Positions 2,754 through 22,194 of a stretch of DNA of 64,000 bases are shown piece by piece. The stretch's first letter is position 1, and each line of letters starts with the position of its first letter. Below the pieces are notes generated by a model that ran no database searches, was not told where the DNA came from, and saw only the letters and a program-made list of their open reading frames with translations. This DNA is from a virus (Duplodnaviria; Caudoviricetes), in IMG/VR virus record IMGVR_UViG_3300043432_000237, positions 32,001-96,000 of that record. One strand, written 5' to 3'. Both the position numbers and the translations under genes were made by a program.

Positions 2754-3287
2754 ATGCAAAACCGCCTGGAGCTGTCGCCGCCAACCGTGACGCGCCCCTT
2801 CCGCGGGCCCGAGGACACCGTGCGCGAAATGGTGCGCGCGGTGCTGGGGCCGCGAGGCGAGCGCTCGATGCTGGTGCGCACGATGACCGAGCAGTGCGTG
2901 CACCTGCTGCAGGACAAGGACTACCAGAGCGAGCTAATCGCCATCCGCAACTTCGTCGCCACCAAGGGTCGTTACACCAACGACTCACTGGGCGTCGAGG
3001 TGGTGAAGGATCCGCAGCGCCAGGTGGAAGAGATCCTGGCCCGCGGTGTGACCGTCGGCGACTGCGACGACTGCGCCACGCTGATTGCCACCATGTGCCG
3101 CCAGGTGGGCCGCGAGGCCGAGTTCGTGACGGTGGGCTTCGGCTCCCCGAACACCTACTCGCACGTGTTCACGCGCGTGCGCGAGCCCAAGAGCAAACAG
3201 TGGATCGTGCTGGACACGGTGGCGGGTAGCGACGAAGCCAAGATGCTCCGTCGGGTGACGACCTGGCGAGCATGGAGGATTGACTGA
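2754..3287 (+). CDS. Transglutaminase-like cysteine enzyme (candidate maturation protease)
   Basis: GDCDDCA (Cys), YSHVF (His), WIVLD (Asp) in transglutaminase-core order and spacing. Confidence 0.8.
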   Translation: MQNRLELSPPTVTRPFRGPEDTVREMVRAVLGPRGERSMLVRTMTEQCVHLLQDKDYQSELIAIRNFVATKGRYTNDSLGVEVVKDPQRQVEEILARGVTVGDCDDCATLIATMCRQVGREAEFVTVGFGSPNTYSHVFTRVREPKSKQWIVLDTVAGSDEAKMLRRVTTWRAWRID

Positions 3288-4051
3288 TGAGCTACGTTGC
3301 TGTCGGAGCCCTTACGCGCGTGTCCACCATCAACGCCCCCGCGGTACCGGTCTCGAACCCGTCGGCTGGGCAGGCCAGTAGTTTCAAGACGCGCATGACG
3401 ACGTACAGCGCACCGCCGCCGCCGCCCGCTGCCGCCCCGACCAACCAGGTCGAGTTCGGCGTGCCCATGCAGAAGACGGTGCAAGCCCCCCAGGCCACGG
3501 TGCAACAGGTAGTGCCAGTGCCCCAGGCCGTGTTGCAGCAGGCGGTTCCGGTCGCGGAAGCCTCGGTGCAAAAGGTGCCTAGTCTGCCCGTGCAGCCCAC
3601 GGTTACGCCGCCGCCCTCCAGCTGGTCGCCGCTCCAGGCGCCCGTCAAAGTCGAGGTGCCCGCGCCCGCGCCCAAGTTGTCCCCCATCAGCTTGGGCTTG
3701 CAGTACGCGCTCATTCCGCCGCCGGCCGCGCCGGCCGCGCCGGCCGCGCCGCGGGCTGCTCGTCGGCCAGCTCCGGCTCCGGCTGCGCGCCCGAGCGCAG
3801 GCAGCTGGCTGAGCCGCCCGGCCGCGCCGCTGGTGCCGCCGGCCGTGATGAGCTACCTGCCGGGCGCCAGCTGGTCAGCGGCGCCGGCTCCCGTCATCAC
3901 CAACACGCAACAGGTGACGCTGCCGCCGTCGGTGCGCGAGCCATCCGAGGCTCCTGCTGGCATGAGCAAGCGTGACTGGATGATCGCGGGGTTGATCGGA
4001 CTCGTCGCAGTGGGTGCGGCGGCCGTGTACGTGAAGCAGAAGAAAGGCTGA
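3287..4051 (+). CDS. Pro/Ala-rich tail-anchored membrane protein
   Basis: Low-complexity stalk, C-terminal TM WMIAGLIGLVAVGAAAVYV plus KQKKG. Confidence 0.75.
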   Translation: MSYVAVGALTRVSTINAPAVPVSNPSAGQASSFKTRMTTYSAPPPPPAAAPTNQVEFGVPMQKTVQAPQATVQQVVPVPQAVLQQAVPVAEASVQKVPSLPVQPTVTPPPSSWSPLQAPVKVEVPAPAPKLSPISLGLQYALIPPPAAPAAPAAPRAARRPAPAPAARPSAGSWLSRPAAPLVPPAVMSYLPGASWSAAPAPVITNTQQVTLPPSVREPSEAPAGMSKRDWMIAGLIGLVAVGAAAVYVKQKKG

Positions 4052-4056
4052 GAGCA

Positions 4057-4491
4057 ATGTTGGGTCAGACAGGTTTCATGGTTCCGGGGCCGACGGCCTA
4101 CAGTCCGCCGCGCGGATTCCCCACGTGCGTGCCGGCCGATCGCAAGGCGCTCGCCGAGTACGCCTGCAAGCGCTACCAGACCGTCAAGGGACTGGGCACG
4201 GTGGCCGATCCGTACGCGGTGGCCCCCGCCTGCTACGTCGCGGCCATGCCGACCTGTGCGCCGACGCTGGTGCGCAGCTCGTTCCCGACGGCGCAGCTCA
4301 GCACGTCCGTCCTGAACGCCCTGCGGACGCCACCCGTCCTGAACACCGAGCCGCAGCCCATTCCGCCGCCCCCGGCGCCCGCTCCGTCGAGCAACAAGGC
4401 GCTGGTCGTCGGTGGCATTCTGGCCGCCGCGCTGGTCGTCGGCGGTGGCTACCTGGTCTACAAGTCCAGGAAGAAAACCGCAGCCGCCTGA
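4057..4491 (+). CDS. Tail-anchored membrane protein
   Basis: 4 Cys, KGLGT motif, C-terminal TM plus KSRKK. Confidence 0.75.
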   Translation: MLGQTGFMVPGPTAYSPPRGFPTCVPADRKALAEYACKRYQTVKGLGTVADPYAVAPACYVAAMPTCAPTLVRSSFPTAQLSTSVLNALRTPPVLNTEPQPIPPPPAPAPSSNKALVVGGILAAALVVGGGYLVYKSRKKTAAA

Positions 4492-4543
4492 CTTTTTGGG
4501 TCACCCGACCCAGAGTGATAGGCTGCACGAGACAGGAGACAGA

Positions 4544-5194
4544 ATGACGGCTTTCCCCAATCAGCCCATCGGTGGCCGGCTCCCGACGATGTGGGAGGTC
4601 GGCCCGAGCGACTTGCGCTACTCGTCGAGCACTGCGCCGGCCATGCAGACCCAGATCGATCGGGCGCACGGGCGTCATCTCGCCGGGACCGACGACCAGG
4701 TCCAGGACGAGGCCGCCGATCAAGGCATGGCCAAGAACGAGCTGGACTACTACGCGCAGATGGACGACGTCCAGGGCGCGGGCGTGTTCGATCCGCCGGG
4801 TAGTCATGGCAACATCCACCCCGACGCCGGGATCTTCACGGCGCGGTTCGACGTGCCGGGCTACCTCGCCCGCGAGCGCTTCAACCGCCCGAGCGAAGTC
4901 ATCGACGCCACCACGGGCCGCCCGACGATCTACGTCAACGGCGGCGCCGTGGCGATGGACGACAGCGCGCGCGTGGCGTTCATCGAGAACGATCAGTACC
5001 AGACGCCGCAGCCGGTACTGGACTCGCTGGCCGAGCACCGCATGCCGGGCCGCTCGACCGTCAACGTCCAGCAGAACCCGCAAGCCATCGGCGCCGTCTC
5101 GCAGCCGATGAGCGGGATCAAGCTGTTCGCGATCACGGCCGCTGTCGGCCTGGCCGCGGGCGCCGCCTACGCGGCGTTCCGCAAGAAGAAGTGA
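4544..5194 (+). CDS. Tail-anchored membrane protein
   Basis: SD AGGAG before ATG 4544; C-terminal TM plus RKKK. Confidence 0.75.
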   Translation: MTAFPNQPIGGRLPTMWEVGPSDLRYSSSTAPAMQTQIDRAHGRHLAGTDDQVQDEAADQGMAKNELDYYAQMDDVQGAGVFDPPGSHGNIHPDAGIFTARFDVPGYLARERFNRPSEVIDATTGRPTIYVNGGAVAMDDSARVAFIENDQYQTPQPVLDSLAEHRMPGRSTVNVQQNPQAIGAVSQPMSGIKLFAITAAVGLAAGAAYAAFRKKK

Positions 5195-5200
5195 GCGCCA

Positions 5201-5479
5201 ATGGACTGGGAGCAGGCAGCAGCTGGGACCGGGGACTATCACAGCTACCCGATCACGCCGGGCGTGGGCGACGTCTACAGTGACGCCGCGGTCAGCCAGG
5301 CGCGCGCCATTTGGGGTGCGCTCAGCGTCGCGGGCGCTGCTGCCAGTGCCTACCACGGCTACAAGCGCACGCAGAGCGTCGGCTGGGCGTTCGTGTGGGC
5401 GCTGTGCGGCTCGATCGCTCCGGTCGTCACCGTGCCCGTGGCCATCGCGCAGGGATTCGGCAAGCCGAAGCGAGGGTGA
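5201..5479 (+). CDS. Small two-TM membrane protein
   Basis: Two hydrophobic helices around AYHGYKR; ends GFGKPKRG. Confidence 0.7.
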   Translation: MDWEQAAAGTGDYHSYPITPGVGDVYSDAAVSQARAIWGALSVAGAAASAYHGYKRTQSVGWAFVWALCGSIAPVVTVPVAIAQGFGKPKRG

Positions 5480-5485
5480 GCGGAG

Positions 5486-6937: not shown

Positions 6938-6940
6938 GGA

Positions 6941-7546
6941 ATGACTATGCAGATGCCCGGCTACCCTCCTGGAGTTCCCAACCCGCTCGTGCGGCACGTG
7001 CACCCGTACCCCACGCGCTTCCATGGCACGATCTACACGCGCCCGGTGTTCGGGCTGCCGTACGTGCTCAGCCCGGGCAACGTCGCCATGCCGGGTGAGA
7101 TCGCCGGCCTGGGCGACTACAACGTGGGCCAGGGCGTGTTCCGCCCGGGCGGCTACGGCGGCGGCGTGTTCGACGGCAACCTCGCGGGACTCGGAGCCAC
7201 GGATCCGGTGGCGGCGGCCCAGACCAACCTCACCCAGCTGCAAGCCACCATTTCGGCGCTGGCGTCCCAGATGGCGTCGGTGACGCCCAACCAGGCCGCT
7301 CTGCTGGCAGAGCAGATCGCTGCGCTGCAGAAGCAGGAGACCGCGCTCAAGGCGGAGATCAAGAAGCTGCAGAGCGTGCCGAAGGTGCCCGTGTCGTTCT
7401 CGCCTCCAGTGGCCGCTCCGCCGGTGCAGACGGCGCCAGTCGAGTCGCTGATGGTGCCCAGCGACAACAAGTGGGTCATGTTCGTGGTGGGTGGCGGAAT
7501 CGCCATCGGTGCGCTGATCTACCTCAAGAAGAAGAAGAAGATCTGA
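6941..7546 (+). CDS. Tail-anchored coiled-coil membrane protein
   Basis: AGLGDY and AGLGAT motifs, coiled coil, TM plus KKKKKI. Confidence 0.75.
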   Translation: MTMQMPGYPPGVPNPLVRHVHPYPTRFHGTIYTRPVFGLPYVLSPGNVAMPGEIAGLGDYNVGQGVFRPGGYGGGVFDGNLAGLGATDPVAAAQTNLTQLQATISALASQMASVTPNQAALLAEQIAALQKQETALKAEIKKLQSVPKVPVSFSPPVAAPPVQTAPVESLMVPSDNKWVMFVVGGGIAIGALIYLKKKKKI

Positions 7547-7980
7547 TGTACGTCTCGCTCGGAGCCGAGCTGCAGCACTTGCCACTGCCGGGACTCTCCA
7601 GCGGTGGCTCGTGCAGTATGGCGTCCAACGCCTACAGCGTGTTGACCGGTCGCGTGCAGGATGCCTTGGCCGAAGAAGGCGCCTCGCTGATCTCGGACGG
7701 CATCTGGAGCAAGCGCACCTGTGCGGGCTGGTGGCTGGTGATGGAAGAGGCGCCGACCGAGTCGGGCGTGCGCGAGCTGCTGGGCGACTACGTCCCGACG
7801 CAGTGCAAGTCCATCAGCGTGCCCGCCTGCCCGCGCCCGAGCGCGGCCGAGCTGGCGGCGGTCAAGGTCGCCAAGCCGGGCTGGCAGGCCGACATCGGCG
7901 GCAAGCCCTGGAACCTGTGGCTGGTGGGCGGCGTGGTCGCCGTGGCCGCTGCCTTGGCCTACACGCGCCGCAACAAGTAG
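7546..7980 (+). CDS. Tail-anchored Cys-containing membrane protein
   Basis: Start coupled to upstream stop (TGATG); VSLGA near N-terminus; TM plus RRNK. Confidence 0.7.
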   Translation: MYVSLGAELQHLPLPGLSSGGSCSMASNAYSVLTGRVQDALAEEGASLISDGIWSKRTCAGWWLVMEEAPTESGVRELLGDYVPTQCKSISVPACPRPSAAELAAVKVAKPGWQADIGGKPWNLWLVGGVVAVAAALAYTRRNK

Positions 7981-8029
7981 CGGTCGGGATTTTTGCAGCC
8001 GTTGGCTGCCCCGTGATGTACTCGGCCTC

Positions 8030-8671
8030 ATGAGTTTCGGAATTCTCGGAGGTCTGGGAGCAACGGGACTGGGGTCAGCTCCATACCCGGTGTGCTCCTA
8101 CTTCGGCTACGAGTGTCAGCACTGGAACGAGTACCCGCCGGACATTCAGAGCCAGATCATCGCCGCGGCGAAGCAGATCGACGCGAACCTGCAGGCGCAG
8201 TACGCGACCATCCGCAACGACGGCGGCTGCGACGCCAACGTCTCGGGTCGTCTGGCTGGCGCGCTCAAGGAGAAGCTGATCAAGTCCGGTGGTGATCCGG
8301 CCAAGATGAGCGCGGACGACTCCAGCTTCGGCCCCAAGGAGTGCGCCGAGTGGTGGAGGATCTACGACCGCGGCGTGACCATGGACGACGTGCTGGCGGT
8401 CAGCACGGCCGTGCTGGGCGGCGTGAAGGCGTCGGTCCAGACGATCTGCCAAAACAAGATCACGCTGCCGACCTGCGTGAAGCCGCCGCCGCCGCCGCCC
8501 CCCGGCGGTGGCAGCAGCAGCGGTGGCGGTGGTGGCGGAGTGATCCTGCCGCTGCCCATGCCGGCCAAGCCCAAGGTCAGCTACGCCAACCTGCTGGTGA
8601 CGGGCGGCGTGGTTGCCGCCGTCAGCGTGACGGGCTACTTCGTGGCGAAGAAGAAAGGCTGGCTCAAGTGA
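8030..8671 (+). CDS. Tail-anchored Cys-rich membrane protein
   Basis: GGLGATGLGS leader, 6 Cys, Pro/Gly linker, TM plus KKKGWLK. Confidence 0.75.
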   Translation: MSFGILGGLGATGLGSAPYPVCSYFGYECQHWNEYPPDIQSQIIAAAKQIDANLQAQYATIRNDGGCDANVSGRLAGALKEKLIKSGGDPAKMSADDSSFGPKECAEWWRIYDRGVTMDDVLAVSTAVLGGVKASVQTICQNKITLPTCVKPPPPPPPGGGSSSGGGGGGVILPLPMPAKPKVSYANLLVTGGVVAAVSVTGYFVAKKKGWLK

Positions 8672-9039
8672 AGCGAGTCAACGTGGACGTGAGCAACTTT
8701 CGCGGCCCGCTCGATCCGGTGCCGTTCGCGGGGCTGGGTGCAGCGGCGCCCGGCTGGCCGGGTGGGCGCTCCTACTGGAACGTCTCGAACTTTCGCGCTC
8801 CCTACGACACCGGCCGGTTCAACGCGAGCCTGATGGGCCTGGGCGCGACGCAGGTGGCCGTGCCGCCGAGCGCGCTCTTGCCACCGCGCTTCCAGGAGTA
8901 CCTCGCCACGGGCGCCCCGATGCGCTCGGTCGTGGGCGCCGTGCAGCCCGCGCTCTGCCAGATCCCGCGCTGGGCCTGGGCGCTGATTGCCGCAGGCGCC
9001 GGCTACGCCGCCTATCGGGCGTTCAAGCCCAAGACCTGA
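8668..9039 (+). CDS. Tail-anchored protein with duplicated VSNFR.P.D...GLGA unit
   Basis: GTGA overlap start; DVSNFRGPLD..AGLGA and NVSNFRAPYD..MGLGA; C-terminal TM. Confidence 0.7.
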   Translation: MKRVNVDVSNFRGPLDPVPFAGLGAAAPGWPGGRSYWNVSNFRAPYDTGRFNASLMGLGATQVAVPPSALLPPRFQEYLATGAPMRSVVGAVQPALCQIPRWAWALIAAGAGYAAYRAFKPKT

Positions 9040-9049
9040 GAGAGCGACC

Positions 9050-9871
9050 ATGGGAAGCCTACAGGCACTTGCGTCCAAGTTCGTGATGGATCCGCCGCCG
9101 GATGACCCGGCAGGTCGGCTGCAGTTCCTTGCTCAGCATCTGCAGTACGTCGAGCAGATCATCGCGAAGCTGCCGCTGCCCGGCTACATCGCGGAGGATC
9201 AGGCGCTCCGCGACATGAACTCCGTGCGCGATCTGCTGGACAAGCTCAAGGACGTGACGGTGTCCACGGCTTTCCAGCTGCCCGGCGACGTGATGCGCAA
9301 CGTGATCCTGGGTCTCTGGCACGTCTGCAACTACGGCGTGAAGGTGCACTCTCCGGAGTGGCGCCAGCTGGCGCTGACCAACAAGGTCATGACGGCCGCC
9401 GAGCTGGAGCAGGACTACCTGGCGCGCCTGGGTGTGATGCAGGTGATCATCCGCATCCAGCAGTCGGGCGCGCTCAATCCGCTGTTCGCGAAGAAGGGTT
9501 CGATCACCTCGCTGGGTGAGCCCATCACGACCATCGCCATCGTCGCCATCGTCGCCACCGCCGTGGTGCTCGTCGCGCTGGGCTACGCGCTGATGCAGTG
9601 GACGGTGCTGTCCCTGAACAACAAGAAGATCCTGGACCGCCTGGACAAGATCTGTTTTGACTCGCAGGGGCGACCCATCGAGGCTGTCAAGGCCGACTGC
9701 GTGAAGGCCTACCAGGATGCCAACGACAAGCTCAACACGCAGGGCCCCAAGAACCCGATCGAAGACCTGGTGAAGTACGCGGCCATCGGTGGCGCCGTGT
9801 ACCTGGGCGTGCTGTTCCTGCCTGACATCGTGCGCACGCTGCGCGAGACCCGCGCTGCGTCCAAAGCCTGA
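9050..9871 (+). CDS. Two-TM membrane protein
   Basis: TSLGE immediately before first TM; second TM near C-terminus. Confidence 0.7.
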   Translation: MGSLQALASKFVMDPPPDDPAGRLQFLAQHLQYVEQIIAKLPLPGYIAEDQALRDMNSVRDLLDKLKDVTVSTAFQLPGDVMRNVILGLWHVCNYGVKVHSPEWRQLALTNKVMTAAELEQDYLARLGVMQVIIRIQQSGALNPLFAKKGSITSLGEPITTIAIVAIVATAVVLVALGYALMQWTVLSLNNKKILDRLDKICFDSQGRPIEAVKADCVKAYQDANDKLNTQGPKNPIEDLVKYAAIGGAVYLGVLFLPDIVRTLRETRAASKA

Positions 9872-9884
9872 GGAGCATCCAGTC

Positions 9885-10223: not shown

Positions 10224-10795
10224 GTCGACGCTACGTCGTCAACCGCGCCGAGTCGTTCGAGGCGGCCAAGCGCATCCGGGAGACGTTCCAGGACGCCCCC
10301 ATGCGCCGGCAGACCCCTGTGCCCTGGCAGTGGCCGAGCAGCATGCAAGAGGTGGGGATCTGCATTGGCGTCATGTACGCCTCCAACAAGTGGCAGTCCA
10401 ACCCGCGCACGCTGGTCGACTACAAGCACCTTGCCGAAGGTCCGCAGCGCCTCTACGTGCGCCGCGGTTTTCTGCGCGAGCACAAGACTCCCGAGCGCCA
10501 GCTGCGCGTCTGTGGCCCGATGGTGCCGCTCGACAAGCCGATGCCCACCGCGTTCGCGGAGCTGGCCAAGATCTTGGGCATCCAAGCCCAGCTCTATCAG
10601 GGCACCAACGAGCGCTTCGTGGTGCCCGAGGGCGACGAGCACATCTACCAGGTCAACATTCCCCGCGCGCACCTGGGGGCGGCCAAGCACCCCAAGACAG
10701 GTGAGACGTTCTTGCTGGTCTACAACGCCGACGGTGTTCACTGCATCATCTGCGGTGATGAGCTGGACGTCGAGAAGGACGGCATCGTGGGATGA
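10220..10795 (+). CDS. Hypothetical structural-region protein
   Basis: GTGA overlap start; soluble beta-rich protein with YVVN near N-terminus. Confidence 0.65.
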   Translation: MSRRYVVNRAESFEAAKRIRETFQDAPMRRQTPVPWQWPSSMQEVGICIGVMYASNKWQSNPRTLVDYKHLAEGPQRLYVRRGFLREHKTPERQLRVCGPMVPLDKPMPTAFAELAKILGIQAQLYQGTNERFVVPEGDEHIYQVNIPRAHLGAAKHPKTGETFLLVYNADGVHCIICGDELDVEKDGIVG

Positions 10796-11106
10796 GCTAC
10801 GTCGTGGCCCGCCCGCAGAAGAGCCTCGGCGTCGTCCCGGGAGGACAGAACTTGTGGCTTGGACTCGCACTGTCAGTGGTCCTGCTGTACGTGTTCCGCG
10901 CGGAGCTGTTCGGTGGTGTGTCCACCGCGGGCTGGTACGTGGAGCTGTACGAGTATCCGGTGGGCCACCGGGAGCGTCGCATCAAGCTGGTGGAGGGACC
11001 GTTCGAGAGCAAGCGTGAGGCGAACGAAGTCGCGCGCGAGAACGACGACGTCTGGTATCCGCGCGTGGTCTACCGTGAGCGCGCGTACACGGAAGAGGAC
11101 TTCTGA
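10792..11106 (+). CDS. Small membrane protein with SPOR-like C-terminus
   Basis: KSLGV, TM, then GPFESKREANEVAR. Confidence 0.55.
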   Translation: MSYVVARPQKSLGVVPGGQNLWLGLALSVVLLYVFRAELFGGVSTAGWYVELYEYPVGHRERRIKLVEGPFESKREANEVARENDDVWYPRVVYRERAYTEEDF

Positions 11107-12496: not shown

Positions 12497-14287
12497 GTGC
12501 CCAAGATGCCCGGAACCATCGGACGAGCGTTCAAGATCAGCAGCAAGCAGGCGAAGAGCTACGGCTACGCCCGCCCCAACCCTGGCGTGACGGCCATCGC
12601 CGCCGTCAACGGCCGCGGGTCCTACACCGCGCGCACGGCCATGACGGGTCGCAGCGCTGCCGGTCGCCTGTCGCACGCGCGCAACGCGACTCGTCGCCAG
12701 CTGAGCGCGGCCGACCGCGCCGCGTTCGCCAAGCGCATGCGCGACGCGCGCCAGCGCAAGATGACCGGCAACATGTCCCGCTCTGCGGCGGGCAAGAAGA
12801 ACATCAAGCGCGCCATCGCCACCCGTAAGGCATGGGGTCGCAGTCTGCAGCGCGGGCACCGGTATCGCGTCGGCGCCGCCGCTTACGGAAAGTCACCCGG
12901 GGCCGCCAAAAAGCTGTCTCCGGGCGTCTACACAGCAAATCGGAGGACAAGAATGCTCAGGAAAAATCGCACCACCGCACGTCGGCGGGGGCGGGTTCTC
13001 CGGAAGAGCCGCAAGGCGCGCCGGATGACCAGCAACCCGAAGGCGCGTCGCACGACTCGCCGCCGCCGGAAGAAGACCACCGCAGCCGCCGCGCCGAAGC
13101 GCCGCCGTCGGGTGAAGCGCCGCCGCAAGGCGACCGCTCGCAAGACGCCGGTGCGCCGTCGCCGCCGCCGCAAGGCCAAGGCCAGCTCGGCAACCCCGAA
13201 GCGTCGCCGTCGGGTGAAGCGCAAGAGCCGCAAGGCGAGCGCTCGCAAGTCGCCGGTGCGTCGTCGTCGTCGCCGCAAGGCCAAGGCCAGCTCGGCCGCG
13301 CCGAAGCGTCGCCGCCGCGTGAAGCGCCGCAAGGGTCGCAAGGCGAAGGCCATGTCGCCCAACCGTCGCCGCCGGGTGAAGCACCGCCGCAACCGTCGCC
13401 GGTCCGGCCGTCGCCTGGGGATGTTCCGCCGCAATCAGGGCTTCATGACCACCCTCAAGGAGGGCGCGAAGGTCGGCCTGATCGTGTTCGCGGGCGTCGC
13501 GGCCCACAAGGCCGCCACCAAGCTCCTGACCGAGCTGGTGCTGGACAAGTTCCTCGGCGCCGCTGCCACCCCGGCCACCCCGCCGGCTCCGGCCGCGGTT
13601 TCGGGACTCGAAGTCCTGCAGCCCTACAAGAAGATCATCGCGGGCATCGCGGTTGCCGGTCTCGGCAGCTTCGCAGCCAACGCCGTGATCAAGGACCAAG
13701 AGACCAAGAAGTACGCCATCGCCGGCATGTGGGGCTCGCTCCTGCACACCGTCATCGTGGACCTCTTGGCCGCCTTCGGTGGAGCCACCGGTGGCAAGGT
13801 TGCGCAGTACCTGTCGGGCTACGACGACAGCACCGCGTACTCCCTCGGCGCTTCGATCATGCCGATGTACCGCCCCGTGGGCGAGTACTTCGATCAGGGC
13901 ATGGGCGAGTACTTCGAGGGCGCCACGGCCGGTCTCGGCAACTACGGCATGAACGGCGACATCTACCAGGCGCAAGCCGGGTACGGCGCCATGCCGGACT
14001 CGAACTCGGGCCACATCGATCCGTCCAGCGACCTCGACCGCGAGCTGACCCTCGCGGAAGCGGCAGCGGGCGTCGGTGCTCTGCCGTCGTACGAAGCAGC
14101 CGCCGGTCTCGGCGACTTCATCGGCAACGGCCACAAGGCGATCGGGTCGCGTTCCACCTGGATCCCGGGTGAGACGAACCCCGGCACCTGGGCACCGGTG
14201 ACCAGCGTCAGCCGCGGCCAGGCCGCGACGGCCATGGTCCCGGCCGGCATCCTGCAGACCGGTGGAGGCTCGGGCGTCTTCGGCTGA
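12497..14287 (+). CDS. Protamine-like Arg/Lys-rich core protein precursor fused to a membrane domain
   Basis: About 300 aa extremely basic N-half, hydrophobic helices, Gly-rich tail with GEYF/GLGNY/GLGDF; directly upstream of capsid candidates. Confidence 0.75.
   Translation: MPKMPGTIGRAFKISSKQAKSYGYARPNPGVTAIAAVNGRGSYTARTAMTGRSAAGRLSHARNATRRQLSAADRAAFAKRMRDARQRKMTGNMSRSAAGKKNIKRAIATRKAWGRSLQRGHRYRVGAAAYGKSPGAAKKLSPGVYTANRRTRMLRKNRTTARRRGRVLRKSRKARRMTSNPKARRTTRRRRKKTTAAAAPKRRRRVKRRRKATARKTPVRRRRRRKAKASSATPKRRRRVKRKSRKASARKSPVRRRRRRKAKASSAAPKRRRRVKRRKGRKAKAMSPNRRRRVKHRRNRRRSGRRLGMFRRNQGFMTTLKEGAKVGLIVFAGVAAHKAATKLLTELVLDKFLGAAATPATPPAPAAVSGLEVLQPYKKIIAGIAVAGLGSFAANAVIKDQETKKYAIAGMWGSLLHTVIVDLLAAFGGATGGKVAQYLSGYDDSTAYSLGASIMPMYRPVGEYFDQGMGEYFEGATAGLGNYGMNGDIYQAQAGYGAMPDSNSGHIDPSSDLDRELTLAEAAAGVGALPSYEAAAGLGDFIGNGHKAIGSRSTWIPGETNPGTWAPVTSVSRGQAATAMVPAGILQTGGGSGVFG
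13094..13350 (+). repeat. About 2.5 tandem copies of a 34-37 aa basic unit (PKRRRRVKR...RK[TS]PVRRRRRRKAKASSA)
   Basis: Direct repeat visible in DNA and protein. Confidence 0.85.
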
Positions 14288-14340
14288 GCCACACGGGCGA
14301 TGAGCTGAGCGCTTCGTCGGCGCGCAGCGAGGCCCCACGA

Positions 14341-14380: not shown

Positions 14381-14468
14381 ACGTGTCGAAAGAGGACGAG
14401 AGGAACCACGCCTCTCAAAAAATGGTGCTCGCGCTTTGCGGGCAGTAGTCCTCAGGAGAACAAGGACC

Positions 14469-15221
14469 ATGGCAAAAGTAGTTTCCATTCGCGAGCGCGT
14501 TCACCAGCCCTTCTACGACACCCTCGTCCGCACGGCGGGTCTCACGGCCGGTGCGCTCACCGACAACACCTCCCTCTTCACCAGCAACGGTGCACGCACC
14601 GAGGCGACGACCAACCTGATCAACGGCGCCACGCTGCCCTCCGATCAGAGCCACGTCGTGCTCGCGCTCCGCGTCTTCACCTGGTACCGCAACCCGCGCC
14701 TGCGCGTGGCCGGTGCCGGTGCCGGCGAGATCGCGCAGAACGGTGACTACAACTTGCTGGCCCCCTGGCTCGCGGGCGGCGCGGCCGTCGGCCAGGCCCC
14801 CGGTCAGGTGCAGGACGTGTACCGCCTGCACTGGCAGACCGAGGAGCAGCTGCACTGGTCGTTCGGGACCGGGCTCAAGAACTCGATCGACAACATGCCG
14901 ACCTGGTACTTCCCGGCGGGCGGCGGCATCTCGGGCGACATGGGTGGGACGACCGACCTCATCCACTGGCAGAACTCGGGCTACGACGGGCACGCCGGCA
15001 TCCTGCGGCTCGCTCGCGCCGTCCTGATTCCGCCTCGCCAGAACATCCTGTGCCAGGCCAAGGTCTTCGCCCTCCCGAACGCGGGTCAGGCGGTCACCTT
15101 CGGCACGACCCAGGGTGCGCGCGACATGCTCAACCTCCGCGACAACCTGAACGCCATCGACGCGATCGGGAAGTGCGTGATGTTCTGCTTCGACGGCCTC
15201 TTCTCGCGCGACGTTCAGTGA
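14469..15221 (+). CDS. Candidate major capsid protein (single jelly-roll type)
   Basis: Strong SD, biased codons, flanking hairpins; HQPFYDT...LF...TNL..GATLPSDQS motif and beta-strand pattern ending MFCFDGL. Confidence 0.6.
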   Translation: MAKVVSIRERVHQPFYDTLVRTAGLTAGALTDNTSLFTSNGARTEATTNLINGATLPSDQSHVVLALRVFTWYRNPRLRVAGAGAGEIAQNGDYNLLAPWLAGGAAVGQAPGQVQDVYRLHWQTEEQLHWSFGTGLKNSIDNMPTWYFPAGGGISGDMGGTTDLIHWQNSGYDGHAGILRLARAVLIPPRQNILCQAKVFALPNAGQAVTFGTTQGARDMLNLRDNLNAIDAIGKCVMFCFDGLFSRDVQ

Positions 15222-15230
15222 TCCCACACG

Positions 15231-15354
15231 CGCCGGTGGGGGTCCTCTCCGGCCCCCTCCGGCGTTCGTCTGCTCCCGAAGAGCGTGGCACGAGCGGCGC
15301 CGCGCTGGCAGCCCAAGCCGCTACGGGATCTGGTTCGCCAGGTCTCGTAGCGGC
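15231..15354 (+). other. Hairpins downstream of capsid gene (stabiliser or attenuator)
   Basis: CGCCGG..GGGG/CCCC..CCGGCG and GCCGCTACGGGATCTGG-TTCG-CCAGGTCTCGTAGCGGC (15317-15354). Confidence 0.65.
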
Positions 15355-15414
15355 CCGCTCAGACCCTTTGATCCTCAACTCCCAGCCCTCGCCTGAGCGA
15401 GCACGGGGTTTCCC

Positions 15415-16365
15415 ATGAACGTCAATCAGCAGCTCTTGAACCAGCTCAACGCCGCGGCGCAGAACGCCCGCGTCGCATTCGAGCGCGCCGCCCGCGCCGA
15501 ACAGCAGGGCCAGGCCTTGTACGCCCAGGCATCGCAGCTCGCCGGTGAGCTGGAGGCCATGAAGCGCGTCGTCGCCAACCTCGAAGTCTCGCGCTCCGGC
15601 GCTCCGGCTTCCATCCAGCGGGTGGAGAACATCCCGGGCCGACGCATCCCGTTCGATGCACTGGTCGACATCGCCATCGGTGACTCGGTGCAGTCGGTGC
15701 AGCAGGGCTCGATCACCATCTCGCAGGAAGGCCCGTTCGTGGGCGTCAGCCGCGTGATGGCGCTGCTCAGCACGTTCGAGTTCCAGTACCGCGATCCGGT
15801 CTCGGGCGCCGCCAGCGCCTTCCAGGGTCGCTCCTACGGCCGCTACCGTCCCGCGCACAGCGCCTGGGACCTGAACGACAGCATGGTCTCGCCGCAGGTC
15901 TCGCAGGCCGTGGGCTTCCCCGGCACCGGCGCGCCGCACGTGACCAGCCCCGGCACGGCGTCCAGCTTCCGCTCGATGGAGGGCGACTTCCGCATCATCG
16001 TCGAGAACGCCGGCTCCAGCTTCCCGCGCTCGAACCAGGAGGTCCCCTCGGCGTTCTGGTCGCGCGCCATCAACGAGCCCTTCGAGCTGGGCGCGCTCGA
16101 CGTCTTCGAGCGTGGCGAGGTCATCGTCTTCAAGGTGCTGCCGCTGCACCCGAACAACCCGAGCTACGGCAACCTGAGCGCGTTCGGCGCGCCCAACGCC
16201 AGCTTCCCGTTCGTGACGGCCGGCTTCGATGCCGTCGAGGGCGTCAACGACCAGAACGACGCGAACGCCTCCACGACCGATCCCGTGACGCGCCTGGCGA
16301 ACGCCATCGTCACGATCGGCTACCACGGCTACCGCATCATCCAGCAGCCGGGTCTGCCGGGCTGA
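15415..16365 (+). CDS. Candidate second capsid protein (coiled coil plus jelly-roll)
   Basis: N-terminal coiled coil; SITISQEGPFV; ends VFERGEVIVFKV...IGYHGYRI. Confidence 0.55.
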   Translation: MNVNQQLLNQLNAAAQNARVAFERAARAEQQGQALYAQASQLAGELEAMKRVVANLEVSRSGAPASIQRVENIPGRRIPFDALVDIAIGDSVQSVQQGSITISQEGPFVGVSRVMALLSTFEFQYRDPVSGAASAFQGRSYGRYRPAHSAWDLNDSMVSPQVSQAVGFPGTGAPHVTSPGTASSFRSMEGDFRIIVENAGSSFPRSNQEVPSAFWSRAINEPFELGALDVFERGEVIVFKVLPLHPNNPSYGNLSAFGAPNASFPFVTAGFDAVEGVNDQNDANASTTDPVTRLANAIVTIGYHGYRIIQQPGLPG

Positions 16366-16436
16366 GGCGTGCCGACCGAGAGGGTCACCGGAGGGATTGC
16401 GAGCCTCCGGTGGCCATTTCGAGGTAGGCTCACACC

Positions 16437-17312: not shown

Positions 17313-17430
17313 CTTGGGAAAGCGACCGGCCCATGGAGCCCGCGAGCGTTGCAGCGGATCGGACAACTGCTGCAGCGAGCACGAGCCTTCCGGCTTGGGC
17401 CGGTCGTTTCTCCATTCGTGAGGTGAGCTG

Positions 17431-18180
17431 ATGGCCCTGGGAGCATATTTCCGAGCAGTCGAGAGTCAGCCGATCCCGGAGCCGCAGCTGGACGGGCTGG
17501 GCTCGCAGGATCAGTTCGCGGTCGAGGCGTTGCAGGAGCTGCTGGAGGCACAGGGTATCCGGCCTGCGGCGGCGATGGCGCCCTGGGGCATCCAGGAGGG
17601 CAGCGTCGACTGGCAAGCCGAGCACCCGGACCACAGCCTGCTGCTGTATCCGATCAGCGATGGCCTGCTGACGCAGGTCGAGAAGTCGACCTTCGGCATG
17701 CCCGTGCCGGCCGTCGCGATCTTGACCACCACGCCCGTCGTGCTGGCCAAGGCGCGCGAGGCCTACGACGATACGCCGTACCGCTTTCACGCCGTCGAGG
17801 GCGTCTACCGCCTGGACGACAAGAAGCCGGTGCCGACGATCTACTTCCTCTACTGGGGTCACTACCGCGAGCCCAACGACAGCGGAGGTGGCCGCTCGGC
17901 GCTGCAGAGCGTCGCGTCCATGCTCGGCGGCTCGCTCGTCTTCCCGTTGCAGCTGCCGCGCACCGGCCAGGAGCGCCAGCACCCGTCGGTGACCTTCCAG
18001 CTCGCCCTGGCGGCGCAGCTGAGCGGCCAGCCGGCGGCAGCGCTGCCGCCGACGGCGGTGCCCAGCGCGCTGGCACCCAGTGCCGCCCCGGCGCCTAGCG
18101 CGGCCTGGTGGCTGCTCCCGGTGGTCGGCGGGCTGGCCGCCTATGGCGGCTACCGCTGGTGGAAAGGACGCAAGAGCTGA
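17431..18180 (+). CDS. Tail-anchored membrane protein
   Basis: MALGAYFR, DGLGS; TM plus RWWKGRKS. Confidence 0.7.
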   Translation: MALGAYFRAVESQPIPEPQLDGLGSQDQFAVEALQELLEAQGIRPAAAMAPWGIQEGSVDWQAEHPDHSLLLYPISDGLLTQVEKSTFGMPVPAVAILTTTPVVLAKAREAYDDTPYRFHAVEGVYRLDDKKPVPTIYFLYWGHYREPNDSGGGRSALQSVASMLGGSLVFPLQLPRTGQERQHPSVTFQLALAAQLSGQPAAALPPTAVPSALAPSAAPAPSAAWWLLPVVGGLAAYGGYRWWKGRKS

Positions 18181-18329
18181 TGGCCAAGATCGTTGCTATC
18201 TCGGGCACCGAGCCCCAACCCAACCAGGCGGCACTCATGAGCGCAGCAGCACTCGGATGGACGGTCGTGCTCGGCGTGACCTTCTACATCTTCTGGAGCA
18301 CGGCCAAGCCGGCCCGCAAGCGGAGGTAG
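18180..18329 (+). CDS. Small membrane protein
   Basis: Coupled start; single TM plus KPARKRR. Confidence 0.65.
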   Translation: MAKIVAISGTEPQPNQAALMSAAALGWTVVLGVTFYIFWSTAKPARKRR

Positions 18330-18332
18330 ATC

Positions 18333-18548
18333 ATGATCTCGCTCACCGATCTGGGAACCGTGGCCGACGTCGCCCAACAGGTCGAGGCCAACCCCTTCAT
18401 GCTGGCGGGCCGTCTGATCGGCCTGAGCGGTGACGAGCAGAAGGCGGGCGTGCCGATGTGGGCGTGGGTCTCGCTGGCGTTCGTGGGCGGAGCAGTCGCG
18501 ACGCTGAAGTACGGTCCGCAGATCCGCGCCAAGCTCAAGCAGCTCTGA
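18333..18548 (+). CDS. Small tail-anchored membrane protein
   Basis: SD GGAGG; TDLGT; TM plus basic end. Confidence 0.7.
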   Translation: MISLTDLGTVADVAQQVEANPFMLAGRLIGLSGDEQKAGVPMWAWVSLAFVGGAVATLKYGPQIRAKLKQL

Positions 18549-18600
18549 TTTTTGGAGGTCGAGCAGACCTTTGATAGCGTCGGACCTGGAGCCACTCAAC

Positions 18601-18942
18601 ATGTACCAGCCAACCAGCAAAGCAGACGGGATCTTCTCACACGGTGTGGGTCCGAGCTACGCCTACGGCGCGCAGCGAACGGCGCACGCAGACGGCTCGC
18701 TCGGCGAGTACGCCTACGGCGCGCGCACCTCTTCGTTCGCGGACGGATCACTGGGTGGCTGCAGCAGCTGCTCGGGCATGGGCGCCCTGACGCCCGAGCT
18801 GGCGACCAAGGTGTTGTCCGCGATGCAGCCGCAGTTGCCCGCTGCACCGCCGATGTCACCGGTGGTGCGTGGTCTGCTCATCGGCGGCGGCGTGCTGGTC
18901 GTGGCCGCCATCGGCTACGCCGTGATGAAGAAGAAGGGATGA
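18601..18942 (+). CDS. Tail-anchored protein with internal YAYGA.....ADGSLG repeat
   Basis: Two YAYGA/ADGSLG units, SGMGA, TM plus MKKKG; start may be TTG 18571. Confidence 0.7.
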   Translation: MYQPTSKADGIFSHGVGPSYAYGAQRTAHADGSLGEYAYGARTSSFADGSLGGCSSCSGMGALTPELATKVLSAMQPQLPAAPPMSPVVRGLLIGGGVLVVAAIGYAVMKKKG

Positions 18943-18946
18943 GGTC

Positions 18947-19216
18947 ATGGCGCTAACGAATAGGTGCCTGAGCGGTCTCGGCGCGGCGTTCATCGAGATG
19001 CCCCGCGCCCGCCTCGGGTTCCGCGCGGGCGGCGTGTTCTCGCCGCGCGCTTCGGCCGCCGAGTACAAGCCGAGCCTGGGTGAAGTGCAGGCCGTGACGG
19101 AAAGCGCCAGCTCGATCGAACAGCGCCAGGAGAAGCAGAAGCTGCTGCTGGTGACGAGCCTGGCCAGCCTGGCCGTCGGCGCCGCCATCACCTACGCTGT
19201 GATGAAGAAGAGCTGA
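18947..19216 (+). CDS. Small tail-anchored membrane protein
   Basis: SGLGA, PSLGE; TM plus MKKS. Confidence 0.7.
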   Translation: MALTNRCLSGLGAAFIEMPRARLGFRAGGVFSPRASAAEYKPSLGEVQAVTESASSIEQRQEKQKLLLVTSLASLAVGAAITYAVMKKS

Positions 19217-19221
19217 CCGCC

Positions 19222-19515
19222 ATGCAAGACGGTATCTTTCTCTCGTCTCCCACGCGGGGAACGCTGCCCACGTCGCGCAACGCGCTCATTGTGGCTCAGC
19301 GGCCGACTTCGCTGGGCCGAGTCAACTCGGCCGGCGTGGCCCTCACGTTCGGTGTGTTCGGTTTGGTGCTGGCCGGAGGAGCCTACGGGGGCTACCAGCT
19401 GGGTAGGCGTTACAAGCATCCCCTGGTGGGCGCCGCCGCGGGTGCTGCCGTCGCGTACGTCCCCGCCTGGATGGCGGGTGCTGTCACTGCGCTTCTCACG
19501 ATGGGCAGCGTGTGA
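19222..19515 (+). CDS. Small multi-TM membrane protein
   Basis: TSLGR then Gly/Ala-rich hydrophobic helices. Confidence 0.65.
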   Translation: MQDGIFLSSPTRGTLPTSRNALIVAQRPTSLGRVNSAGVALTFGVFGLVLAGGAYGGYQLGRRYKHPLVGAAAGAAVAYVPAWMAGAVTALLTMGSV

Positions 19516-19521
19516 GGATCC

Positions 19522-20964
19522 ATGCAAGACGCTGGAATCGGGCTCCGCCGACTCTCCCCTCGCGACACCCTGGCCGGCGATCCGGGCGGGAGCATAACCG
19601 GCGTCAGCACCTACGAGCTGCCCGACGGAGCGATCTGTTGGTGTGTCGAAACGCAGTGCGACTACCAGTTGCACAAGAGTTCCACGACAGCGGCTGACGG
19701 AGTCTACGTCGTGGCGCCGGCCGCTGGCCCTGGTCGCTGGTTTCAACTGGCAGTGGGGAACAACGTGCTGGTGCAGCCGAGCTGGTACGTCAACGCGGTC
19801 ACTGGTTCAGACGCCAACGACGGCACGACGGCGCTGACCCCGCTGCTCACGTTGGCGGAGCTGTACCGTCGAACGGTGGGCAAAGTGTTCGCCGTGAACG
19901 CTACGGTGTACCTGAGTGGTGACTTCAGCGCAGAGGCACTGGTGCTGGACGCCTGCGTCGCGCCGGGGGTGCAGGTCACGGTGCGCGGTGAAGTCCGACA
20001 GGACGGCAGTTACTCTGTCGGGGCGTATACCGCGTACAACGGTGCAACGAGCACTCCGGCGGTAGTGAGCGACGGCGGAGCGACCGCATACGCTGGCGAC
20101 GTGGGCAAGATCGCGCGGATGACTTCGGGAGCGGCAATCAACTGCTCTGCTCCGATCATGAAGGCGACGGCCGCTGGAGCGTTCCGACCTGGACACTTCC
20201 AGTCGGTGGACTACGTGACGATGGCTCCGGGCGTCGGCGACACCTACGTGGTCGAGGAACTGCTCACCAAGGTAGGGACCATCCAAACGCGCATGAGCGG
20301 CAGCGGTGGAGACTACTCGGTCTATGCCCCGCGCCTGCTCGTGCGGGACCTGGATGTGTACCCGCCGGCAAACACGCCTCAAGACCTGTCGTTCAACGCA
20401 GGCGACGCGAGCGGAGCGGGCACCTTGCTCTACCGCGTGCGTCTGTCCGGTGGCGCCCTGGGCAATGTGTGGCTGACCGGTAGCGGGGTCCAGCTGCTCT
20501 GCACGTACTCCAAAGCCGATTGCTATCTCACCGTCGCCGGTTCAGCGCTCTACTGCTGGGGCTTCGTGGCGATGGGCGGGCTGCAGGTCAACAACAGCAT
20601 CTTGAATGTCCCCTTTGACATGATGCTGGTACAGGGTCACGCGGTTTACTTCTACGGAGGCCAAGTCGCCGCAGTCGCAGGCATCGGGTTCCTGGACATC
20701 GGAGCCGGCGACGGTGCCGGGCTGATCGTCAGCACCGGAGCCAACGTCGAGGCATCCGCCGGGACGTCGTACCTCTGGAGCAACGGAAACCTGTGCGCGT
20801 ACGGTATCCGAGTAGGAGCAGGATCGATGGTCACCTACGGAGTGAAGCCGACGGCCACCGGCGTCACGAACGACACGCTAGTCGGCGGGACCGCCAAGGC
20901 CTATGCCGCGATCCCCTACTTCGAGGCCGCCAACGGCGCGGGCATCGTGGTCTACCAGGGATAG
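19522..20964 (+). CDS. Putative receptor-binding spike (shared N-domain plus beta-helix-like body)
   Basis: N-domain paralogous to ORF 768; WYVNAVTGSDANDGTTALTPLLT is a typical beta-helix entry motif. Confidence 0.65.
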   Translation: MQDAGIGLRRLSPRDTLAGDPGGSITGVSTYELPDGAICWCVETQCDYQLHKSSTTAADGVYVVAPAAGPGRWFQLAVGNNVLVQPSWYVNAVTGSDANDGTTALTPLLTLAELYRRTVGKVFAVNATVYLSGDFSAEALVLDACVAPGVQVTVRGEVRQDGSYSVGAYTAYNGATSTPAVVSDGGATAYAGDVGKIARMTSGAAINCSAPIMKATAAGAFRPGHFQSVDYVTMAPGVGDTYVVEELLTKVGTIQTRMSGSGGDYSVYAPRLLVRDLDVYPPANTPQDLSFNAGDASGAGTLLYRVRLSGGALGNVWLTGSGVQLLCTYSKADCYLTVAGSALYCWGFVAMGGLQVNNSILNVPFDMMLVQGHAVYFYGGQVAAVAGIGFLDIGAGDGAGLIVSTGANVEASAGTSYLWSNGNLCAYGIRVGAGSMVTYGVKPTATGVTNDTLVGGTAKAYAAIPYFEAANGAGIVVYQG

Positions 20965-21019
20965 AGCAGCCACCGAACCCTTGGCAGCGCCAGGCGCCCA
21001 GTGATAAGTCACCAGGCAG

Positions 21020-21610
21020 ATGGCCAATGAGCTGTTCGAGGCGCTGAGCAAGGTTGCGTTCTCCCTGCAGGGCTTGCCGCGCGGCTCACTGGGTGGCCCG
21101 GTCTGGGAAGAGCTGAAGCCCTGGCTGGAGAAGTTGATGTCACACGCGGCGCCCAAGTGGTTGCCGCGCCTGAGCTTCGCGTTCCCCTGCCAGGTGGCTG
21201 TGCATCGACAGGGCGTGCCCATTGGGCCCTGTCCGCACCGGGCCATCGCGAGCTGCGACGTCTGCGGTGGCGCCTGCTGCCTGCACCACGCGCGCATCGA
21301 CCAGCTGGGCGACGCCATCTGCTACCCGTGCGTGGCGCGCGCTGTGGCGGCACACCGTGGCGGCGGCGCACCTCCGGCGCCCCCTCCGCGCAGCAAGGCA
21401 GAAGAGCTGCGCTGGGCCCGCAAGCTGCTCAAGGTCAAGCCGGAGGACGACTGGGAGACCATCCGCGCGGCGCACCGGCGCGAGAGCGGAAAAACCCACC
21501 CGGACCGGCAGCGCACCGACAAGGCCAAGGCCAAGGCCACCGAGCGCTTCAAGCTGGTGCAGCAGGCGTTCGAGGTGCTCAAGCTCGAACACGGCCCCAA
21601 GACGGGCTGA
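21020..21610 (+). CDS. Zn-finger plus J-domain (DnaJ-like) co-chaperone
   Basis: Cys/His cluster; IRAAHRRESGKTHPDR...ATERFKLVQQAFEVL with HPD motif. Confidence 0.8.
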   Translation: MANELFEALSKVAFSLQGLPRGSLGGPVWEELKPWLEKLMSHAAPKWLPRLSFAFPCQVAVHRQGVPIGPCPHRAIASCDVCGGACCLHHARIDQLGDAICYPCVARAVAAHRGGGAPPAPPPRSKAEELRWARKLLKVKPEDDWETIRAAHRRESGKTHPDRQRTDKAKAKATERFKLVQQAFEVLKLEHGPKTG

Positions 21611-21658
21611 CGTTCAGGTTTTTGGTCGATGGCCGAGCCGGGTGGTAGCCTGACCTCC

Positions 21659-21868
21659 ATGAGCTACGGATCGCTGGGTGAGAGCTACGCCATCACGCTG
21701 CCGGTGGTGGGGCACACCTCCATGGAGCTGCCGGTCCAGAAAATCACGCACGACGCCATGAGCTACGCGCTGGAGGATCTCAAGCTCCGCGTCAAGGCGA
21801 AGCTGCCGGTCGTGATCGGTGTCGGTCTGCTCGGCGTGGCCGGCTATCTCGTGATCAAGAGGATGTGA
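21659..21868 (+). CDS. Small tail-anchored membrane protein
   Basis: MSYGSLGE; TM plus KRM. Confidence 0.65.
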   Translation: MSYGSLGESYAITLPVVGHTSMELPVQKITHDAMSYALEDLKLRVKAKLPVVIGVGLLGVAGYLVIKRM

Positions 21869-22194
21869 TGAGCTACGTGAACACCAGCAGGCCGTACTAC
21901 GAGCAGTTCCAGATCGACACGCCCCTCGAAGAGGGCACGATGGGCTGGTCGCGCGCTCCCTGGCCCGGGTGGGGTCAGAACGCCAACCTGATCGGTCCCA
22001 AGCAGATCGCGGTCGGCTCCAGCCCTGACGGACTCGGTGCGTACTACCGGAACCAGGAGAACCGCGCGATCGGCCAGGACGCTGGCTCGGGCGGTGGTGC
22101 GCTGGTGGTCGTGATGTTCGCGTGCGCGGTGGTCGGCGGGCTGGTGCTGCTCGGCAGCATGCGCGAGATCGGCAAGCAGCCGCGTCGTCGGTGA
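21868..22194 (+). CDS. Tail-anchored membrane protein
   Basis: DGLGAYYR, RAIGQ; TM plus KQPRRR. Confidence 0.7.
   Translation: MSYVNTSRPYYEQFQIDTPLEEGTMGWSRAPWPGWGQNANLIGPKQIAVGSSPDGLGAYYRNQENRAIGQDAGSGGGALVVVMFACAVVGGLVLLGSMREIGKQPRRR

Follow-up and report, generated by a model that had tools for sequence, protein, structure and literature searches.

Tailed phages, encapsulins and eukaryotic large DNA viruses are known to use short shared peptides for sorting or processing many unrelated virion proteins. The capsid-targeting sequence of phage T4 is a short peptide carried by internal proteins and then removed by the prohead protease, and encapsulin cargo is loaded through peptides of the GSLxIGSL type. 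Among eukaryotic viruses, adenovirus AVP recognizes (M/I/L)XGX-G or (M/I/L)XGG-X, poxvirus I7 recognizes AG-X, and pS273R of African swine fever virus (ASFV) recognizes GG-X. To our knowledge, such shared peptides have no described example in membrane-containing prokaryotic viruses, in which the selection of membrane proteins and their tethering to the shell are poorly understood. Here we analyze a Gly-Leu-Gly-type motif, [GS][LM]G, in a block of virion genes at ~2.7-22 kb of a 64,000-nucleotide stretch (the window) of the virus record IMGVR_UViG_3300043432_000237. The record is 125,036 bp long, with direct terminal repeats and 66-67% GC, and the window covers its bases 32001-96000. The block is an uninterrupted plus-strand series of mostly small genes headed by a gene for a transglutaminase-fold enzyme (2754-3287). 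An earlier note had seen a broader pattern, [GSA][LMVF]G, in its membrane proteins and proposed that this enzyme cleaves there during virion maturation. We find that the core is a real short linear motif, specific to the block, conserved and under selection at the protein level.

The system works like targeting and cargo-loading peptides or like Gly-motif maturation sites but belongs to none of them, because its shell is probably not of the HK97 fold, its carriers are membrane proteins and its candidate protease does not have a clan CE fold. As in T4 and the encapsulins, a short conserved peptide on unrelated proteins would direct them to a common shell, and some repeats found here (SGSLGVLG) resemble the encapsulin peptide. 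However, those shells have the HK97 fold and their cargo is soluble, whereas here the carriers are membrane-anchored, the candidate shell protein is a predicted jelly roll, the motif often occurs in multiple or tandem copies and its binding is putative. Adenovirus, poxviruses and ASFV are comparable in that their capsids are of the jelly-roll type, which is probable here too, and in that many of their structural precursors carry Gly-based sites; about 30% of the sites described here fit (M/I/L)-x-G-x-G. Their enzymes belong to clan CE (adenain C5, I7 C57, pS273R C63) while the candidate here has a transglutaminase fold, and their sites lack the tandem arrays and extreme N-terminal copies that are both present in this block.

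Every motif instance quoted in the earlier note exists in the open reading frame to which it was assigned, including GGLGATGLGS at the N-terminus encoded at 8030 and TSLGR in the frame at 19222. The broad pattern is indeed enriched in the block, but only modestly (1.5-fold): the 27 proteins of 2754-22194 contain it 54 times against 34.8 expected (z 3.2), and the other 140 proteins of the genome show no enrichment (132 against 130.8 expected). The signal is carried by the core [GS][LM]G, with 27 sites in the block against 9.5 expected (z 6.0, about three-fold). Variants with Ala at the first position (ALG, 4 against 5.5) or Val or Phe at the second ([GSA]VG, 16 against 13.2) are not in excess. 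A composition-matched control of the kind proposed in the earlier note, with transmembrane segments masked and shuffling confined to 20-residue windows, left the enrichment of the block in place, both for the core (25 against 8.7, z 5.7) and, about six-fold, for [GS][LM]G[ADENS] (16 against 2.7, z 7.4), and gave no excess in the rest of the genome (z -0.6). With an aromatic residue added, the pattern is found 9 times in the block against 0.4 expected, and once outside it against 1.3. Sites at 9509, 10155 and 13658 fall within hydrophobic helices. The AGFGD at 36991, also counted in the earlier note, drops out: it sits in an SLT transglycosylase outside the block, fits only the non-enriched broad pattern and is probably due to chance.

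We found four related virus genomes (138, 124.6, 179 and 125.7 kb, one of them at 55% GC), whose proteins share 55-80% identity with their counterparts in the window. With the same masking and local shuffling, their z scores range from 6.0 to 7.7 in the block and are about 0 elsewhere. In each genome the core is enriched about three-fold in exactly one block of 20-30 kb and nowhere else when counted in 10-kb bins, and the transglutaminase-like gene is the first of this block. The excess is weaker (z 2.1-4.4) in more distant relatives, whose versions of the capsid candidate are 28-39% identical. At the DNA level, 17-28 different 9-mers per genome (18 in this one) code for the sites; the constraint therefore acts on the protein and not on the DNA, which rules out a DNA-level explanation. 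Gly-, Ala- and Leu-rich proteins of a 67% GC genome could in principle yield such a pattern without any selection, and the merely 1.5-fold enrichment of the broad form and the lack of excess for Val, Phe and Met in its middle position and for Ala in its first are what such an origin would give. It does not account, however, for a core enriched three-fold and an extended form enriched six-fold or more after masking and local shuffling in five genomes including the one at 55% GC, nor for the lack of excess elsewhere in those genomes and the conservation of the motif columns in orthologue alignments. We therefore reject chance and composition as an extremely improbable source of the motif.

A profile built from 172 sites gives [YF]-F-A-(M/I/L/T/Q)-(N/S/D)-G-(L/M)-G-(E/A/D)-Y-F. 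Both flanks of the core are constrained: Tyr at +2 is 6.8-fold and Phe at +3 4.7-fold over background, and Tyr or Phe at -5 and -4 is 3.6-4-fold over background. Met, Ile or Leu two residues before the core is found in 52 of the 172 sites, 2-3-fold over background, which accounts for the (M/I/L)-x-G-x-G fraction; the majority of sites do not fit that form. Orthologue alignments show the motif keeping register as the flanks diverge, and across all families identity is 0.47 in motif columns against 0.31 in flanks. Orthologues keep a motif in 35% of cases, whereas control tripeptides are kept in 8-25%. The copy number of the motif differs among orthologues. In the orthologues of a 596-residue protein (12497-14287, plus strand), FAQNGLGEY is repeated three to five times in tandem with a 9-residue period and EAAAG(V/F)G repeats come next. 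When this protein is aligned across the five genomes, G462 E463 Y464 F465, G468, G470 E471 Y472 F473, G479 L480 G481 and Y483 are invariant against an overall identity of 41-48%. Another family has five to seven copies of (F/V)(R/K)SGSLG(V/I)LG in repeats of 17-18 residues, and some proteins carry a copy at residues 2-9, as in MNNGLGEYF and MALGAYF. An example of a stretch bearing the motif is FDQGMGEYFEGATAGLGNYG.

The carriers are membrane proteins of the virion gene block, as had been proposed. In the five blocks, 82 of the 144 proteins (57%) have a predicted transmembrane helix, usually a single C-terminal one, and 56 of these 82 carry the motif. They also have little else in common: all-versus-all BLAST places most carriers in separate sequence families, in agreement with the earlier note. 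Most are fast-evolving, and many have a single motif copy. The idea that the motif ends a short leader or precedes the helix holds loosely, since 90 of the 125 motifs in transmembrane proteins precede the first helix and half of the first copies are no more than 30 residues from the N-terminus, but the distance to the helix is variable, from about 15 to more than 120 residues. In the 59 proteins whose single helix is C-terminal, the short tail that follows it has a mean net charge of +2.66, compared with -0.02 for the 15 residues preceding the helix; the membrane therefore separates the basic part from the flexible, non-basic part that bears the motif. No conserved motif is found in the block's conserved soluble proteins (those of 191, 250 and 316 residues and a J-domain protein). 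The carriers resemble substrates of LPXTG/sortase, PEP-CTERM/exosortase and GlyGly-CTERM/rhombosortase in combining a signature motif, a C-terminal helix and a basic tail. Those signals, however, abut the helix in proteins with an N-terminal signal peptide, whereas the motif here lies 15 to more than 120 residues upstream, is often N-terminal and can be repeated. Its position thus rules out a sorting signal of the sortase type.

The enzyme that heads the block (2754-3287, plus strand, 177 residues) matches Transglut_core (PF01841, clan Peptidase_CA) with an E-value of 3e-8 and 34.3 bits against a curated cut-off of 23, and most of its 138 homologues carry the same label. Its Cys-His-Asp triad, C104 (GDCDD), H137 (SHVF) and D154 (DPVAG), is invariant in 30 homologues. 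The match and the triad point to a catalytically intact enzyme of the kind named in the earlier note; an SLG inside the enzyme, on the other hand, is unconserved among its homologues. The enzyme is found in all four large relatives, and a ~20-kb relative has a 35%-identical orthologue that keeps the triad and gained a helix at its C-terminus. In relatives of 20 kb to 180 kb the enzyme always lies in the virion block, and in two relatives it shares the carriers' C-terminal anchor; the window's own enzyme has no predicted signal peptide or transmembrane helix. [quoted passage not shown] Given its presence in large and ~20-kb relatives and in SSIP-1, the enzyme is therefore an old and probably virion-borne component of such viruses. 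SSIP-1, a tailless phage with an internal membrane, also resembles the present virus in its many small proteins with C-terminal helices, but its genome is one third the size, no similarity of capsid proteins was detected by hidden Markov model comparison and the motif is not enriched in it (8 sites against 7.9 expected). The co-occurrence of motif and enzyme named as a check in the earlier note thus holds in five genomes, where the enriched block starts at the enzyme gene, but not in SSIP-1. The other phage match by tblastn is the pseudomurein endoisopeptidase of Methanobacterium virus PhiF1, and it is weak and partial (E 4e-3, 31.6% identity over 44% of the query). PDB sequence searches with the enzyme and the 250- and 316-residue proteins returned nothing useful. 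On a 19.9-kb contig of Logan SRR26786804, the enzyme (35% identical) and the capsid candidate (28% identical) are paired and accompanied by small tail-anchored proteins; judging from this pairing, genome sizes in the lineage may span a nine-fold range.

The shell candidate is a 250-residue protein (14469-15221, plus strand) without the motif, the most conserved of the block, which AlphaFold2 modelling and structure searches point to as a single jelly-roll capsid protein. It has 686 homologues, all unnamed, on contigs of up to about 138 kb, one of them in a Gemmatimonadales metagenome-assembled genome. A shallow alignment gave a predicted local distance difference test (pLDDT) score of 40, and a deeper alignment from a representative search was needed; with this diverse alignment the predicted fold is a beta sandwich with a pLDDT of 79.6. 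Both structure searches rank the SPV1 capsid protein 6oj0 first (Z 8.2, 137 residues aligned, Foldseek probability 0.98), followed by P23-77 VP17 (Z 7.0) and then by the capsid proteins of HHIV-2 and HCIV-1. Single jelly-roll capsid proteins from viruses with internal membranes thus occupy the top ranks, although a Z near 8 is within the range of unrelated best matches. The ESM Atlas gave weak leads only, to PM2 P2 and PRD1 P3 capsid clusters (score 0.75-0.77). A set of three jelly-roll paralogues was considered and rejected, as hhalign finds no paralogy among the 250-, 316-, 291-, 249-, 191- and 216-residue families. The Sphaerolipoviridae and relatives (P23-77, HHIV-2, HCIV-1) and SPV1 are therefore the closest structural matches, and like theirs the block is rich in small membrane proteins, but their genomes, of 16-30 kb, compare with 125-180 kb here, the sequences show no similarity and no A32/FtsK-type ATPase was detected here.

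Hallmarks of tailed phages were looked for in the whole genome. A search with PF03237 (Terminase_6N) gave no match, and among the Pfam and PHROGs matches listed for 148 proteins there is no terminase, portal, HK97 capsid or tail family, with the exception of phrog_1645. The protein concerned, of 421 residues (112995-114260 of the genome, outside the window), matches this 'virion structural protein' family with an E-value of 4.5e-95; it is the sole strong match of the head-and-packaging category among those listed and is encoded far from the capsid block. The Walker-A proteins of the genome comprise only DnaB, a DnaC-like loader and an AAA+-type ATPase, although a divergent packaging ATPase may be encoded. 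We consider that the virion probably has no tail and has an internal membrane enclosed by a capsid of the single jelly-roll type, because of the jelly-roll matches, the density of membrane proteins and the lack of tailed-phage hallmarks.

What the motif does is a matter of weighing several readings. The one that we prefer, and to which we give slightly less than an even chance, is that it serves as a multivalent docking or assembly handle on virion membrane proteins. One or several copies, sometimes in tandem, would dock unrelated membrane proteins onto a shared partner on their capsid-facing side, this partner being the capsid lattice or an assembly factor. In this way a membrane vesicle would be brought in together with its proteins and tied to the shell, and the opposite face of the membrane would bear the short Lys/Arg tails or, in the 596-residue protein, the long Arg-rich domain. 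A subsequent trimming step by the transglutaminase-fold enzyme, like that of the T4 capsid-targeting sequence, would be compatible with this arrangement without being required. We favor docking because of the tandem arrays, the copies at residues 2-6, the constraint on both sides of the core and the existence of an enzyme-bearing phage without enrichment; docking without cleavage fits the anatomy of the carriers at least as well as cleavage does. Several observations weigh against it. No binding partner of the motif was identified. The membrane orientation is read from charge bias only, and the bacterial positive-inside rule, under which basic tails are cytoplasmic, would place the motif side in the periplasm or the vesicle lumen. 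The jelly-roll match of the candidate shell is middling (Z 8.2), and a packaging ATPase of the expected A32/FtsK type was not found, PF04665 having no match in the genome. Finally, an intact papain-like enzyme heads the same block and its SSIP-1 homologue is virion-associated, so that cleavage is a live alternative or an added step. A complex prediction pairing the enzyme with residues 452-500 of the 596-residue protein scored 0.01; controls were absent and it was not used as evidence.

Cleavage takes its strongest form in the proposal of the earlier note, in which the enzyme would be a virion maturation protease that cuts after or within Gly-Leu-Gly and frees leaders and N-terminal domains from their anchors. 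The invariant triad, the conservation of the enzyme in the virion block from 20-kb to 180-kb relatives and the structural annotation of its SSIP-1 homologue speak for such a role. In the two relatives where it has the carriers' anchor, it would share their membrane side. In addition, half of the first motifs are found in the 30 residues nearest the N-terminus, and about 30% of the sites are adenain-like. Papain-like (clan CA) proteases select mainly by a hydrophobic P2 residue, and Gly-Leu-Gly would suit a hydrophobic S2 pocket and a small P1. However, sites 9 residues apart in tandem would release nonapeptides, some leaders would be just 2-5 residues long, cutting at the copies at residues 2-6 would remove only four to six residues, and the primed side, including its Tyr-Phe pair, is as constrained as the unprimed side. 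Conserved soluble virion proteins lack sites, SSIP-1 has the enzyme with no more sites than expected, and no clan CE protease was found: a genome search with Peptidase_C48 (PF02902) gave no match at E <= 1, none is among the Pfam matches listed, and the enzyme itself belongs to none of the adenain, I7 and pS273R families. Cleavage at the motif by the enzyme is thus possible but unsupported, the only link between the two being synteny, which is conserved for the whole block, and we hold the maturation scheme to be rather unlikely. A little more doubtful still is a combination in which one Gly-Leu-Gly code both loads dozens of unrelated membrane proteins under the shell and is read by the virion-borne enzyme, acting either as a protease or as a sortase-like transpeptidase that cuts after Gly and ligates to capsid lysines or lipid.

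The enzyme could instead have nothing to do with the motif and be a cell-wall endopeptidase for entry or exit, as transglutaminase-fold enzymes in phages can be, or a cross-linking transglutaminase. This overlaps with the docking reading and with that of cohesive repeats (below), and we regard it as unlikely. Apart from SSIP-1 gp34, the only phage match of the enzyme is the PhiF1 pseudomurein endoisopeptidase; the genome also encodes a membrane-anchored SLT transglycosylase (36991-37710, minus strand), and conservation of the enzyme extends beyond motif enrichment. Yet the PhiF1 match is weak and partial, and the window's enzyme lacks both signal peptide and transmembrane helix. The motif as a Gln/Lys site for transglutamination was rejected, as the core has no invariant Gln or Lys, a result that is silent on other substrates. 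Nor need the motif have a single partner. Gly- and aromatic-rich disordered repeats, comparable to FG repeats, could form a cohesive matrix between membrane and shell, or the motif could offer chaperone or insertion handles, for example via the J-domain protein. The multicopy Gly/Tyr/Phe-rich repeats with Pro/Ser/Ala spacers and the fast turnover of copy number and position agree with cohesive repeats, and a conserved J-domain protein is encoded in the block. The Leu or Met between the Gly pair and the flanking pattern are, however, more specific than generic repeats would lead one to expect, and many carriers have a single copy; we find this explanation improbable.

The carriers are spread over the whole block on the plus strand. 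Immediately after the enzyme gene come two tail-anchored proteins, one with a predicted helix at residues 230-251 and an MSY N-terminus (3287-4051; SLG at nt 3689-3697) and one containing Cys (4057-4491), whose KGLGT (nt 4189-4197) occupies the same alignment column in three orthologues. A tail-anchored protein with AGLGDY (nt 7106-7114) and AGLGA (nt 7187-7195) is encoded at 6941-7546, and the 144-residue protein at 7546-7980 has VSLGA at residues 3-7 (nt 7555-7563). The next tail-anchored protein (8030-8671) has the double motif GGLGATGLGS at residues 7-16 (nt 8051-8074). The 123-residue protein at 8668-9039, for which a homologue search returned only 4 proteins, consists of two ~35-residue repeats each terminated by a motif (nt 8731-8739 and 8836-8844), the first of which is kept in 4 full-length orthologues. 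There the motif closes a longer ~35-residue repeat, (S/T)NFR(A/G)P(Y/L)D...GLGA, also conserved in orthologues, and judging from this repeat the recognized unit may exceed the core. In a small membrane protein with an MSY N-terminus (10792-11106), KSLGV (nt 10822-10830) lies directly before the helix. The 596-residue protein has sites at nt 13841-13849, 13898-13906, 13931-13939 and 14105-14113 in addition to AAAG[VF]G variants. About 370 Arg/Lys-rich residues are followed in it by a hydrophobic hairpin or helix and a motif-dense C-terminal region ending in GVFG, so that it repeats the polarity of the carriers at larger scale. All five orthologues terminate in G-x-G-(V/I)-F-G (nt 14276-14287 of the window) after a conserved TWIPG...LWAG...GIL(E/Q)TGG, a free hydrophobic-Gly C-terminus that recalls processed ubiquitin-like or Atg8-like ends.

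Downstream of the capsid candidate, a conserved soluble 316-residue protein with an N-terminal coiled coil (15415-16365) has no motif in any of the five genomes. It is followed by a 249-residue membrane protein that starts with MALGAYF (17431-18180; DGLGS at nt 17494-17502), a tail-anchored protein with the repeat unit ...(H/F)ADGSLG(E/G)... (18571-18942; nt 18697-18705, 18748-18756 and 18775-18783), a tail-anchored 89-residue protein (18947-19216; SGLGA at nt 18974-18982, PSLGE at nt 19073-19081) and a hydrophobic 97-residue open reading frame outside the gene call (19222-19515; TSLGR at nt 19309-19317). A conserved soluble protein with a C-terminal J domain (21020-21610; DnaJ, Pfam E 4e-10, also NCBIfam), whose SLG is unconserved, is a possible chaperone recruiter for membrane proteins. 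The last two carriers are tail-anchored proteins of 79 residues (21629-21868; YGSLGESY at nt 21671-21679) and 109 residues (21865-22194; DGLGAYY at nt 22030-22038), the latter with an MMSY N-terminus and a paralogue at 5201-5479. A Met-Ser-Tyr start, as in the products of 3287, 10792 and 21865, is found in about 10% of block proteins (14 of 144 in five genomes) and in about 1% of the other proteins of those genomes, and MSY is the most enriched tripeptide of the block (6 against 0.3 expected). This start may mark a site of modification or act as a second signal at the N-terminus.

In the whole genome, about 170 genes are predicted by a self-trained gene caller. Almost no protein of the block is named by Pfam, PHROGs or NCBIfam; in or beside it, the enzyme and the J-domain protein are named, a GDSL-lipase/LamG protein lies immediately upstream and glycosyltransferases lie immediately downstream. 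Profile scans of the 148 proteins found DnaB, a DnaC-like loader, the DNA polymerase III beta subunit, ParB, an integrase, the SLT transglycosylase and many sugar-modifying enzymes. The SLT protein, which has a C-terminal membrane helix and lies outside the motif block, is a candidate virion or lysis muramidase. The genome has at least six glycosyltransferases together with nucleotide-sugar enzymes, and this gene set suggests that the virion or the host surface is heavily modified with glycans. It also encodes a Tad5-like Thoeris inhibitor, a dual-specificity phosphatase and a DUF2201 metallopeptidase/VWA pair with an AAA+ ATPase. Two proteins of the window, of 204 and 480 residues (768-1382 and 19522-20964), share an N-terminal segment (...GLRRLSP...ELPDGAIC(Y/W)C(A/V)ET(K/Q)CD(F/Y)QL...) and then diverge; on the strength of this likeness, the segment may be the anchoring domain of two vertex or spike proteins.

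Megablast and tblastn searches with the block and the 250-residue capsid candidate against 50,697 phage records gave no match, and no cultured phage in that set shares the capsid candidate. The virus is a member of an undescribed lineage of 125-180 kb phages that is widespread but uncultured. The 250-residue protein and the missing terminase, portal, HK97 and A32 matches point to very large tailless phages. This context is unusual: in genomes of this size the capsid candidate is a single jelly-roll protein, and neither a terminase nor a portal, an HK97 capsid or an A32 ATPase could be detected. If the enzyme does read the motif as a protease, the system would be the prokaryotic equivalent of virion maturation in adenovirus, poxviruses and ASFV, evolved on another protease fold. 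Because the signal is strong, conserved and confined to the block, the recruitment or maturation of membrane proteins in these viruses can be tested directly with peptides, a single enzyme and a single capsid protein, and the cultured SSIP-1 provides an entry point for the enzyme.

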